Shown here piece after piece: positions 2,786-4,492 of a stretch of DNA of 64,000 nucleotides (within the stretch, counting starts at the first letter, position 1; each line of letters starts with the position of its first letter). Made by a program: the position numbers and the translations under genes. Below the pieces are notes generated by a model that saw nothing but the letters and a program-made list of their open reading frames with translations, was not told where the DNA came from and did not search any database. Origin of the DNA: Escherichia coli (GTDB taxonomy: Bacteria > Pseudomonadota > Gammaproteobacteria > Enterobacterales > Enterobacteriaceae); assembly GCF_030384885.1 (NCBI RefSeq), contig NZ_CP128613.1, one strand, 5' to 3'.

Positions 2786-3715
2786 CTACTTTTTCGTATA
2801 ACTCTCTTCGCATTTAGCCAAAAACAGCAGATTAGTAGCGGTTAAATGAAGGGTATAACTCGCTAAATACTCAGGAACTTTTGTTATTTCTGCCCCTTGT
2901 CCATGTCCACCTTCTTTATTTCGAATGGTTGGAATACCACTCTCAAGTAGAATTCTTATTGAAGAAAATTGATTCTGGAGGTATTCAGGTACTAAATTAT
3001 TTGCCAAACAACTGTTAATTAGTTTTTTAGCTGTGTCAGTATCATTAAATTGCCAAGAATGTTTTTTATGTATGGCTTTCATTAGACTTTCAAAAGATTT
3101 GAGGCAATCATTTAAACATTCTTTATATCGCTGATGTCTATAATGCTCATGGGCGGATAAAAACTCATCGTTTGCTCCGTTATAACTCTTGTTCTTACCA
3201 AGAATCTGAAGCGTAGGCTTTACAACATCAGAATGAATGAATTGTGAGTCAACTTTAACCAACTCTCCTGACTCAAATTGATATCCAAGACCTGCTTCTT
3301 TAAACCTGATATTAAGTTCTTCAATAGCATCATCAGGACTTTGCTTTACTAACCCTCTGAATTTCCACTCATTTGATCTTATATACCCGTCTATCAGTTT
3401 GAAACATATCTCAATGATATCCAAGCATTTTTCATGATCTCTCTCAGCTAGGAAATAGTCAAAAATTGCCCCGAAATTCGATTCAGGATACTGTTTGAGA
3501 GAGAATACACCATATTCCTTACACAGCGTTTTATGAACGAGTCTGTAAAGCTTACTTGCTTCCGTTTCATAGTCACTATCTTCACCGATAGTATCTCTTA
3601 CAATATGAACAACCTGAACACGAAATGCATTTGGTATATTCGTGTATTGGTAAACATCAGCTACTTCACCTCTTAATTTTTTTTGTCTTTTTGAAAATAA
3701 TTCGAATATAGCCAA
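2786..3715 (-). CDS. Phage cargo protein with C-terminal HEPN-like motif (R-x5-H), Abi-like; candidate abortive-infection/toxin RNase
   Basis: 309-aa ORF, apparent TTG start with GAGGA RBS 7 nt upstream; C-terminal IRNKEGGHGQG fits HEPN Rx4-6H; no Ff counterpart. Confidence 0.55.
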   Translation of the reverse strand: MAIFELFSKRQKKLRGEVADVYQYTNIPNAFRVQVVHIVRDTIGEDSDYETEASKLYRLVHKTLCKEYGVFSLKQYPESNFGAIFDYFLAERDHEKCLDIIEICFKLIDGYIRSNEWKFRGLVKQSPDDAIEELNIRFKEAGLGYQFESGELVKVDSQFIHSDVVKPTLQILGKNKSYNGANDEFLSAHEHYRHQRYKECLNDCLKSFESLMKAIHKKHSWQFNDTDTAKKLINSCLANNLVPEYLQNQFSSIRILLESGIPTIRNKEGGHGQGAEITKVPEYLASYTLHLTATNLLFLAKCEESYTKK

Positions 3716-3798
3716 TTTATAATCCTCAAAGATATGCCATTAATATGTCTGAGTTGATGAAAATCACACCGCTTTTACAGTCGTTTTCCACGGTGGAG

Positions 3799-4221
3799 TT
3801 ACCAGTAATATGAGTTTCTTCTGTGCCACCAATAAAGAAGTCCGTATCCAATGATAAGAATTCCGAAAAACATCAACGACATTCCCCAGCCAGTTCCGTA
3901 CCACGAAACCATATCATCGAAAACTAACCCACCCATTTCACGAACTCCGGCTGCTTCCTTAAGAATTGGTTTGAATACCGGAATCAGAAGGGCGATCGCA
4001 AGTGGAGCACCCCAGCGAACAAGACCAGTTTCCATTTTGATCCCGAAAAAGATCCCCGCACCGACAACAAGCAACCAGACTATCAGGCCAGGCGCAGTTT
4101 CTAGTGCTGTTTGCCATTCAACATCGAAAGTTTTCATTAGCCAGGCAACAACTGCCAGACAGAAAGCAAATACGCCTACAACAACCAGTTCAACGCCGCT
4201 TGTTTCGTTATTTCTACTCAT
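3799..4221 (-). CDS. Small integral membrane protein (about 140 aa, 3-4 predicted TM helices), phage cargo
   Basis: Start set at ATG 4221 (AAGGA RBS 4 nt upstream) rather than ORF-track start 4368; long hydrophobic segments (VVVGVFAFCLAVVAWL, LIVWLLVVGAGIFFGI, LMFFGILIIGYGLLYWW). Confidence 0.55.
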   Translation of the reverse strand: MSRNNETSGVELVVVGVFAFCLAVVAWLMKTFDVEWQTALETAPGLIVWLLVVGAGIFFGIKMETGLVRWGAPLAIALLIPVFKPILKEAAGVREMGGLVFDDMVSWYGTGWGMSLMFFGILIIGYGLLYWWHRRNSYYW

Positions 4222-4309
4222 CCTTTTGATCCTTTGTTGCTGTTCAAAATCCGCACAATAAAGAACGTGCAGTGTAGGTAATACTGCACGTTTGTACCAT
4301 TCGTGGTAC

Positions 4310-4492
4310 TTAATCCTTTTGTTTGGCAGACATGAGATCTTCTGCTGCATCTTTAGAGTAGTTATCAATCAGATAACCTAAAATCTCTGTCCATGTAATT
4401 GTTTTTCCTAGTTTTACACTGGCATTTATAGCCAGTCGTTCTAGTTTCATTTTTCTTTCTTCCGTCACGTTATAAGTCGTGCGCTTTGCCAT
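4310..4492 (-). CDS. Small ribbon-helix-helix-like DNA-binding protein (60 aa); candidate phage repressor
   Basis: N-terminal MAKRTTYNVTEERKMKLERLAI resembles RHH beta-strand plus helix; transcribed divergently from replication gene II, as in repressor/replication arrangements of integrative filamentous phages. Confidence 0.5.
   Translation of the reverse strand: MAKRTTYNVTEERKMKLERLAINASVKLGKTITWTEILGYLIDNYSKDAAEDLMSAKQKD

Follow-up and report, generated by a model that had tools for sequence, protein, structure and literature searches.

A dif-adjacent accessory arm carrying an STM4504/CBY_0614-family HEPN gene in a tandem filamentous prophage of Escherichia coli

Positions 2786-4492 of the 64,000-nucleotide stretch of Escherichia coli DNA that we analysed (hereafter the window) probably represent the leftward arm of a filamentous prophage, with accessory and regulatory genes. 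This arm would comprise a separable gene for a 60-aa regulator, a gene for a 140-aa membrane protein and a slot holding a HEPN gene, the product of which would act as a single-gene abortive-infection RNase. The prophage is a YpfΦ/CUSΦ-type filamentous phage inserted as tandem copies into the dif site of E. coli, at the chromosome terminus. A complete dif site (11263-11290) closes its unit of 8,575 bp, and the tandem copies, identical up to position 2701, are separated by an attP/dif-like junction, GGTGCGCATAATGTCAACGCGTTATGTTGAAA (2688-2719). ORF reading placed three minus-strand ORFs between this attP-type junction and gene II (4620-5714; TIGR01629, E 2e-76). Judged by sequence comparison, all three are real genes: in several genera they have conserved homologues, the length of which is constant. 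Downstream of the last one, a hairpin on the minus strand (2707..2766), with arms GGCCGCTGCG (2707-2730) and CGCAGCGGCC (2743-2766) followed by a T-run, forms an intrinsic terminator with a folding energy of -44 kcal/mol (z = -6.5) that overlaps the XerD-side arm of the junction. The earlier note on this DNA had described three co-oriented leftward genes between attP and gene II, a hairpin terminator of their own adjoining attP, and cargo on a filamentous prophage; our analyses agree with this layout and identify the HEPN gene as accessory cargo of an integrating inovirus.

The junction-proximal gene (2786..3715, minus strand, 930 nt) codes for a 309-aa protein of the STM4504/CBY_0614 family, composed of an AbiJ_NTD4 domain (residues 5-168, nt 3212-3703; PF18863, E 8.6e-27) and a HEPN domain (residues 170-305, nt 2801-3208). 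The ORF begins with a TTG codon, a start that agrees with the N-terminal consensus of the family, MxIxDLFSKR. The NCBIfam model NF046078, the curated cutoff of which is 150 bits, matched the protein with 456.1 bits over profile positions 1-280 of 281. In a Pfam scan for the C-terminal domain, DUF7014 (E 1.8e-77) outcompeted Abi_C (E 0.62), and precomputed tables list PF14355 (Abi_C), with an E-value no higher than 1e-5, for the identical protein as well as for relatives of it. Structure prediction yielded the all-alpha, four-helix up-down bundle of HEPN proteins. The protein also harbours the Rx4-6H motif with a polar residue after the Arg, in the form of the catalytic-type sequence RNKEGGH (R265-H271, Rx5H), the codons of which were located at 2903..2923 on the minus strand. 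R265, N266, H271 and G272 are each 98-99% conserved among 137 sequences of 38-58% identity.

Thus, the HEPN R-x5-H site and the link with Abi systems put forward in the earlier note are borne out by the fold, by the conservation of the Arg and His residues in homologues, which it had proposed as a check, and by membership in an abortive-infection-type family (NF046078, AbiJ_NTD4). The idea that the HEPN protein is undescribed is not borne out. Its architecture was defined in 2013 on CBY_0614 by Anantharaman et al. (PMC3710099), who also gave a sensor-effector model for AbiJ-NTD/HEPN proteins, an NCBIfam model exists, and RefSeq already annotates the gene as 'STM4504/CBY_0614 family protein' or as 'abortive infection family protein'. 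By sequence, the 309-aa protein is an ordinary member of this catalogued family, and the HEPN locus of the window leaves current concepts unchanged. In the searchable literature, we found no functional studies of STM4504, CBY_0614, AbiJ_NTD4 or DUF7014, nor any experiment that demonstrates RNase activity or phage resistance in a member of the family. In PADLOC, the protein matched no AbiJ model, and the N-terminal part alone gave a weak match to an unvalidated candidate, PDC-S32 (E 4.5e-10).

Analyses of other loci revealed that the HEPN gene is autonomous from its neighbours and resides on many kinds of mobile elements. The family spans many phyla and falls into 2,720 clusters at 50% identity; the profile used to search genome contigs was built from 18 closer sequences. 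The gene forms a single-gene cassette at four places of the Vibrio cholerae superintegron, each with different neighbours, and members are also found in tailed prophages devoid of the membrane gene. Using tblastn, we found the family on about 340 plasmids, and on ColV/F plasmids the gene stands alone between IS remnants. In the phage collection, megablast gave no match and tblastn retrieved distant relatives only. Clustering of the neighbours of 95 HEPN loci identified no family common to more than five of them. Some HEPN loci adjoin genes for methyltransferases and integrases.

Two toxin-antitoxin layouts were also considered. A HEPN-MNT pair was rejected on the basis that no MNT antitoxin gene lies beside the HEPN gene, the neighbours of which are the gene for a membrane protein without a Pfam match and attP, and that no neighbour recurs in the 95 loci. 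A type III layout with an RNA antitoxin, similar to AbiV or ToxIN, was rejected as well: TRF found no tandem-repeat antitoxin RNA upstream of the HEPN gene, and an Rfam search gave no match. The only array that TRF reported (8 nt, 2.9 copies) is at 4598-4620, far from the HEPN gene.

In the reading that we favour, the hypervariable end slot beside attP would hold a stand-alone AbiJ-clade HEPN gene, and the 60-aa regulator would probably bind the TGAACTCA repeats in the promoter region shared with gene II. We infer that the HEPN protein has RNase activity, a trigger and a defence phenotype. In a healthy lysogen, the conserved AbiJ_NTD4 domain would hold the C-terminal HEPN domain inactive. Upon infection by another phage, the N-terminal domain would sense a signal, and the HEPN domains would pair, with R265, N266 and H271 forming an RNase site by which cellular RNA would be cleaved. 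This would halt translation and abort the infection, protecting the clonal population and the resident prophage. Nevertheless, the protein, N-terminal domain included, is unusually conserved across phyla (40-58% identity), which counts against a defence function, because sensors of fast-evolving phage proteins do not usually show such high identity.

The HEPN protein might instead serve the inovirus itself and not host defence against lytic phages: it might be a toxin for addiction or stabilization, restrain the replication of its own phage, or be directed against rival inoviruses that integrate at dif and form mixed tandem arrays. Accessory toxin modules of Pf phages control prophage production and polylysogeny, according to the accessible text of the reports (PMC12328805, PMC13048266, PMC11341870), related inoviruses with different cargo form mixed tandem arrays at one dif site (F11), and the cargo of the window lies beside the immunity and regulator region. 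However, the family occurs in integron cassettes, plasmids and tailed prophages where no inovirus is present, and therefore an inovirus-specific role cannot be the function of the family. Nor did the comparison of 95 loci and TRF reveal an antitoxin gene or RNA that would go with it, and we consider such a role rather unlikely.

It is less probable still that the 309-aa protein is a HEPN protein devoid of catalytic activity or of a part in defence, be it a ligand-binding, regulatory or host-fitness factor or a YpfΦ/CUSΦ virulence factor. The unusually strong conservation of the N-terminal domain would suit such a function, and YpfΦ adds modestly to Yersinia pestis virulence through an unknown gene (PMC4266046). 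Nevertheless, a near-invariant full R-N-x4-H-G sequence is what marks HEPN RNases with catalytic activity (Anantharaman 2013, PMC3710099). Furthermore, the patchy distribution of the gene, its carriage by mobile elements and its location at hotspots are typical of conflict genes, and the CUS-type phages of virulent ExPEC strains harbour different cargo in the slot.

The earlier note had proposed a three-gene module with a membrane partner, that is, a single abortive-infection or exclusion system. In such a system, the membrane protein would be the sensor or pore partner of the HEPN protein and the 60-aa protein a dedicated regulator or antitoxin. The genes indeed share one orientation with little space between them, one strong terminator follows the last of them, and membrane proteins frequently serve as Abi effectors, as is also noted in PMC12715192. 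In addition, the membrane and HEPN genes travel as a pair between two inovirus backbones, the gene II products of which are 86% identical to each other, and retain 98-100% identity. The HEPN gene (930 nt, 100% identity) and the membrane gene lie behind either the gene for the 60-aa regulator or that for a 148-aa HTH regulator on these two backbones.

The distribution of the genes nevertheless argues strongly against a three-gene system. The HEPN family comprises 2,720 clusters (50% identity) from many phyla, whereas the membrane family amounts to 49 clusters (90% identity) restricted to Enterobacterales. Among 5,426 complete E. coli genomes, the membrane gene is present in 127, the 60-aa gene in 48 and this HEPN allele in only 17, and the 60-aa gene accompanies the HEPN cargo in only two of those 17. 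Elsewhere, unrelated cargo follows the membrane gene. GC content also sets the HEPN gene (34.7%) apart from the membrane gene (45.6%). The co-occurrence of the three genes across lineages, which was to be checked, was seen in near-identical inoviruses only: tblastn searches of all phage genes against 22 loci and the clustering of the 95 loci identified no membrane-protein homologue adjoining a HEPN gene outside them. The HEPN, membrane and regulator genes thus assort independently. On the basis of the homologue distribution, the 22-locus tblastn search, the 95-locus neighbour clustering and the E. coli counts, we rejected the HEPN-membrane partnership; this particular claim, a novel HEPN-membrane system, fails, and a single three-gene system is very improbable. 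Within the inovirus context, the two proteins might still cooperate, since all inovirus copies seen have the HEPN gene directly downstream of the membrane gene and the two are probably co-transcribed.

The membrane gene itself (3799..4221, minus strand) is annotated in RefSeq as coding for 140 aa. The protein, probably of the inner membrane, has four predicted membrane helices, corresponding to four hydrophobic 19-residue windows with Kyte-Doolittle values of 1.6-2.6, in line with its earlier description as polytopic, and no match was found for it in Pfam, NCBIfam or PADLOC. A longer, 189-aa reading of the gene is possible from a TTG codon at 4368. In E. coli, the membrane gene precedes at least five cargo sets other than HEPN, and it is also found alone on the chromosome. 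Based on these comparisons, the protein appears to be peculiar to the inovirus lineage of Enterobacterales and its gene to be the semi-conserved first gene of the accessory unit; a role in exclusion or related to the membrane would be a guess. The slot between the Xer site and the regulator gene accommodates at least seven cargo sets in phages with cores 98-100% identical, and no convincing PADLOC or NCBIfam defence assignment was obtained for the other cargo proteins.

One could imagine the 140-aa protein as a common socket, that is, a membrane effector or anchor for interchangeable distal cargo (HEPN, zinc-ribbon, mobilome CxxC protein and others), which would endow enterobacterial dif-inoviruses with an undescribed plug-in, two-part exclusion or defence platform, but we regard this as highly doubtful. 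In a smaller variant of it, likewise doubtful, the unusually conserved AbiJ_NTD4 domain would recognize not a phage protein but a small molecule or a component of the host that is itself conserved.

We then compared the stand-alone HEPN gene of our favoured reading with known systems. The prototype, CBY_0614 of Clostridium butyricum (PMC3710099), is likewise a two-domain protein of ~300 aa with an Rx5H motif, and the CBY_0614/NF046078 family (PF18863 with PF14355/PF22809) shows no structural difference from the 309-aa protein. Lactococcus AbiJ (Abi-859), a single-gene abortive-infection protein and presumed RNase, is also borne by a mobile element, in this case a plasmid, and combines in one polypeptide chain a variable domain at the N-terminus with a HEPN domain at the C-terminus (PMC13064643), but the type of its N-terminal domain is unlike that of the 309-aa protein. 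No Lactococcus record was among the matches listed in the plasmid tblastn search, and the AbiJ plasmid may be outside the collection. HepS of the Salmonella Gifsy-1 prophage (PDB 9oik) and further HEPN defence RNases of prophages or plasmids, namely the C-terminal domain of AbiA, AbiV, LsoA/RnlA and HEPN-MNT toxins, differ from the 309-aa protein in their sensor or N-terminal parts. Moreover, unlike the LsoA/RnlA, HEPN-MNT and AbiV types, the 309-aa gene has no MNT, Dmd-like or RNA antitoxin partner, and its carrier is a filamentous phage, whereas that of HepS is a tailed phage.

As for the slot, the hypervariable accessory regions (pHVRs) of Vibrio CTX-type phages and the Pf modules (KKP, PfiAT) occupy the same Xer-site position in small integrating inoviruses, with content that varies between phages nearly identical in the rest of their sequence, and the accessible portions of the corresponding reports describe them as enriched in Abi, toxin-antitoxin and defence genes (PMC11630473, PMC12715192, PMC11341870). 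As dif-adjacent slots with Abi and defence genes are thus already published for Vibrio (PMC11630473, PMC12715192), a HEPN gene on an inovirus is not the novelty that it had been taken for. The phage of the window differs from the Vibrio and Pf inoviruses by its Enterobacterales host and its YpfΦ/CUSΦ/UPΦ lineage, and STM4504/CBY_0614 cargo is not named in those portions of the reports.

Closer counterparts are found in the same lineage. YPO2271-YPO2273 of YpfΦ and h3-h5 of UPΦ are, like the genes of the window, three reverse ORFs adjacent to attL/dif and divergent from the replication gene; those dif-adjacent ORFs were reported without homologues or function. In UPΦ phages, the regulator-proximal h3 is present in 221 of 229 and the distal two ORFs in 56-57 of 229, a pattern of one conserved and two variable ORFs that matches the arm in the window, and CUS-1 has other ORFs in place of YPO2271/2272. 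The genes of the window are likely to be equivalent to YPO2271-2273, because of their position, the unit size (8.6 vs 8.7 kb) and the gene order. The HEPN gene would offer a concrete, testable function for such YpfΦ and UPΦ ORFs. It also extends to Enterobacterales, including E. coli, Salmonella, Klebsiella and probably Yersinia, the swap-in conflict-gene slot at dif drawn for Vibrio and Pseudomonas. In practical terms, the copies on the E. coli inovirus and the ColV plasmids represent a convenient entry to a widespread, well-conserved HEPN family.

Lastly, we analysed the regulatory end of the arm. The gene for the 60-aa basic protein (4310..4492, minus strand) is at the position of a phage repressor gene, divergent from gene II. 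Its family is narrow and inovirus-bound, and no match was obtained in Pfam or NCBIfam, nor among PDB sequences with phmmer and hmmsearch. An hhalign comparison with CopG put the strand and helix A in register over 23 columns, but with only 5.6% probability; the protein is a possible RHH regulator. In phages with identical cargo, a 148-aa HTH/RstR-like protein replaces it. As an antitoxin for the HEPN protein it was rejected, since the same cargo, without any change, is found beside another regulator and also on its own.

The divergent regulatory region (4493..4619) contains three copies of TGAACTCA, at 4540, 4564 and 4611, which we infer to act as operators, and a promoter-like site on the minus strand (4553..4526). 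Between the 60-aa and membrane genes, a perfect 10-bp hairpin, AACGTGCAGT/ACTGCACGTT followed by UCUUUAUU (4264..4292, minus strand), lies in a 91-nt spacer that folds at -24 kcal/mol (z = -2.95). This hairpin, located within a segment 98.4% identical to an NGF1-type phage, is possibly an attenuator or terminator, setting the regulator apart from the cargo.

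Three ORFs lie on the minus strand between the attP-type junction and gene II of the filamentous prophage, at 2786-3715 (309 aa), 3799-4221 (140 aa) and 4310-4492 (60 aa), as the earlier note had described. The 309-aa protein matches the NCBIfam model NF046078 ('STM4504/CBY_0614 family protein') end to end, with 456 bits for a cutoff of 150. Pfam scans identified AbiJ_NTD4 at residues 5-168 (E 8.6e-27) and DUF7014 at residues 170-305 (E 1.8e-77). The Abi_C and HEPN matches were sub-threshold in the scan, and Abi_C is listed in the precomputed tables for the identical protein and its relatives. 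An exhaustive search collected 2,720 family clusters at 50% identity. Of these, 137 with 38-58% identity to the query were aligned, and conservation is 98-99% at each of R265, N266, H271 and G272. Based on the domain matches and the conserved motif, the HEPN assignment proposed initially is therefore correct. The opposite possibility, a protein devoid of a HEPN fold with non-conserved Arg and His residues, was checked, and the outcome favours HEPN.

Several polar residues of the N-terminal domain stand out in the same alignment: N135 never varies, and strong conservation is seen at R137, H161, D156, E67 and Q34. Across phyla, in the family alignments, the AbiJ_NTD4 polar residues Q34, E67, D99, E102, N135, R137, D156 and H161 are invariant or near-invariant. 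This pattern would fit a defined pocket, for ligand binding or catalysis, better than a fast-evolving protein sensor.

The three genes had been put forward as a candidate undescribed module, but the architecture of the HEPN protein is already on record, and the protein is a regular representative of a catalogued family. RefSeq labels this particular gene 'STM4504/CBY_0614 family protein' or 'abortive infection family protein', and AbiJ-NTD4 was defined on CBY_0614 by Anantharaman et al. (2013), in whose proposed model AbiJ-NTD domains detect an infection and then unleash a suicidal HEPN RNase (PMC3710099). Our literature search found no experimental work on the STM4504/CBY_0614 family; the mechanism of lactococcal AbiJ is also still unknown (PMC13064643).

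The proposal that the HEPN, membrane and 60-aa proteins form one abortive-infection or exclusion system was not sustained, as the three genes assort independently in their homologue ranges, neighbours and distribution. Of 5,426 complete E. coli genomes, 127 carry the membrane gene, 48 the 60-aa gene and 17 this HEPN allele. In 15 of these 17 genomes, a 148-aa helix-turn-helix (RstR-like) regulator replaces the 60-aa protein. The corresponding phages have a different inovirus backbone, with a gene II product 86% identical and unrelated structural genes, and their HEPN gene is 100% identical at the nucleotide level. Thus, the regulator is interchangeable. The segment common to both backbones extends from the attP side to position 4320, at the 3' end of the regulator gene, and therefore the unit composed of a hairpin, the membrane gene, the HEPN gene and a terminator has recently been exchanged between phages. 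The GC content of the HEPN gene is 34.7%, versus 45.6% for the membrane gene. The supposed HEPN partners are independent modules of an inovirus accessory slot whose type is known.

The HEPN gene is autonomous and found in several types of mobile genetic elements. In V. cholerae superintegrons, a copy 74% identical forms a cassette by itself at four separate sites, and further copies reside in tailed prophages. About 340 plasmids, among them pAPEC-O1-ColBM, carry a 60%-identical paralogue between IS remnants; 300 of these plasmids are conjugative. In genomes, 80 loci were collected from Proteobacteria, Firmicutes, Bacteroidota, Cyanobacteria, Acidobacteria, Planctomycetes, Spirochaetes and other phyla. 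When all ORFs within 2.5 kb were clustered for 95 HEPN loci, no neighbour family occurred in more than five of them; the recurrent neighbours are integrases and DNA methyltransferases. No tandem-repeat RNA was found upstream of the HEPN gene. The plasmid paralogue, exemplified by NZ_CP049102.1 15715-16656, is a frequent gene of conjugative ColV/F-type plasmids in E. coli and Salmonella; it adjoins etsABC-like efflux genes and has IS remnants on either side.

The 140-aa protein has four predicted membrane helices, and profile searches gave no match. Its family comprises only 49 clusters at 90% identity, all from Enterobacterales. In E. coli inoviruses, the membrane gene precedes one of at least five different cargo sets: the HEPN gene, genes for 155- and 123-aa proteins, an ECs_2282 zinc-ribbon protein with a 159-aa protein, a 367-aa protein, or a 'mobilome CxxCx11CxxC' protein with a 63-aa protein. 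In Y. enterocolitica, it is followed by genes for 54-, 105- and 257-aa proteins. Some phages harbour genes for 46-, 91- and 230-aa proteins in its stead, and in Lonsdalea and Mixta it is solitary among chromosomal genes. Over the compared loci, including that of E. coli F11, six or more unrelated cargo sets, mostly without annotation, occupy the slot distal to the membrane gene, among them the ECs_2282 and 'mobilome CxxCx(11)CxxC' proteins and the 230-aa protein, which has C-terminal membrane helices. These contents represent a pool of candidate conflict genes. Starting at an upstream TTG at 4368 would lengthen the membrane ORF on the minus strand to 189 aa and make it run into the end of the 60-aa gene. 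The added part matches a separate PHROG (phrog_6875, E 2.5e-20). The longer reading probably stems from faulty ORF calls in some phage records, because the intergenic hairpins lie within the added part.

The position of the 60-aa gene is that of the repressor, and gene II runs divergently from it. Pfam, NCBIfam and PDB-sequence searches yielded no RHH family match for the 60-aa product. The 127-nt spacer between the two genes (4493-4619) contains three copies of the octamer TGAACTCA, at 4540, 4564 and 4611, one of them inside the spacer of a promoter-like site; in that orientation it is found nowhere else in positions 1-12000. These three copies likely serve the phage regulator as operators. 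Between the 60-aa and membrane genes lies a hairpin of 10 perfectly paired bp, followed by a U-rich tail. The stretch between the membrane and HEPN genes showed no promoter-like site, and a very strong hairpin followed by a T-run is present after the HEPN gene, overlapping the XerD-side junction arm. The two genes are therefore likely to be co-transcribed, which, given the gene distribution data, does not imply a joint function.

The window opens within one prophage copy and contains a second, complete one. As 1-2701 is identical to 8576-11276, the prophage unit is 8,575 bp, and it forms a tandem array whose upstream copy has its cargo outside the window. The copy-copy junction is GGTGCGCATAATGT/CAACGCGTTATGTTGAAA (2688-2719), and a perfect 28-bp E. 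coli dif site (11263-11290) closes the array. The XerD-side arm of the junction is part of a 24-nt inverted repeat that doubles as the cargo terminator, and therefore attP structure and transcription termination may be coupled. In the junction, an XerC-type arm is followed by TGTCAACGCG and then TTATGTTGAAA, with a central region longer than in dif. A nearly identical prophage is found between hipA and ydeT in strain NCTC9104. In F11, the tandem copies differ from each other in cargo and regulators.

The rightward genes are the standard inovirus set: gene II (TIGR01629, E 2e-76) and genes for a gene V-type ssDNA-binding protein, coat proteins, Zot-like pI and pIV secretin. Two small conserved rightward ORFs between the secretin gene and attP, of 102 aa (10565-10873 and 1990-2298) and 77 aa (10991-11224 and 2416-2649, with a CxxC...CxxC spacing), occur in every cargo variant and have matches only among PHROGs without an assigned function. 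From their location, they may be the counterparts of YPO2280a/YPO2281 in YpfΦ.

In position, orientation and variability, the features on which they were compared, the genes under study resemble YPO2271-2273 of YpfΦ, described in a review as devoid of homologues and of a known function and as replaced by other ORFs in CUS-1 (PMC4266046). The same features are shared with three reverse ORFs beside dif in UPΦ phages, of which h3 is conserved and h4/h5 occur in about one phage in four (PMC7307601). According to published work, variable dif-adjacent loci of Vibrio inoviruses are enriched in defence, toxin-antitoxin and Abi genes (PMC11630473, PMC12715192). Pf phages carry defence and toxin-antitoxin modules. 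The 309-aa protein is most likely a stand-alone, autoinhibited abortive-infection enzyme; the analysis established its HEPN fold, motif, autonomy and mobile-element contexts. Its putative RNase activity, upon a presumed infection trigger, would shield the lysogen, and hence the prophage, from other phages. This reading of a widespread HEPN family supplies a hypothesis for the 'unknown' ORFs of the YpfΦ/CUSΦ/UPΦ group.

Immediately to the right of dif, the segment 11296-12205 contains a 146-aa ORF with no family match and the remnant of a Xre/ParS-type (RES-Xre) antitoxin gene on the minus strand, split into 64 and 49 aa. Further on, a minus-strand gene (12992-14425) codes for a 477-aa leucine-rich-repeat protein that resembles the LRR portion of type III effectors of the SspH2/SlrP kind, without a match to the E3-ligase portion at the C-terminus of those models. 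The GC content of this gene is 55-59%, versus 46% for the window, and the exact protein is known from one E. coli genome only.
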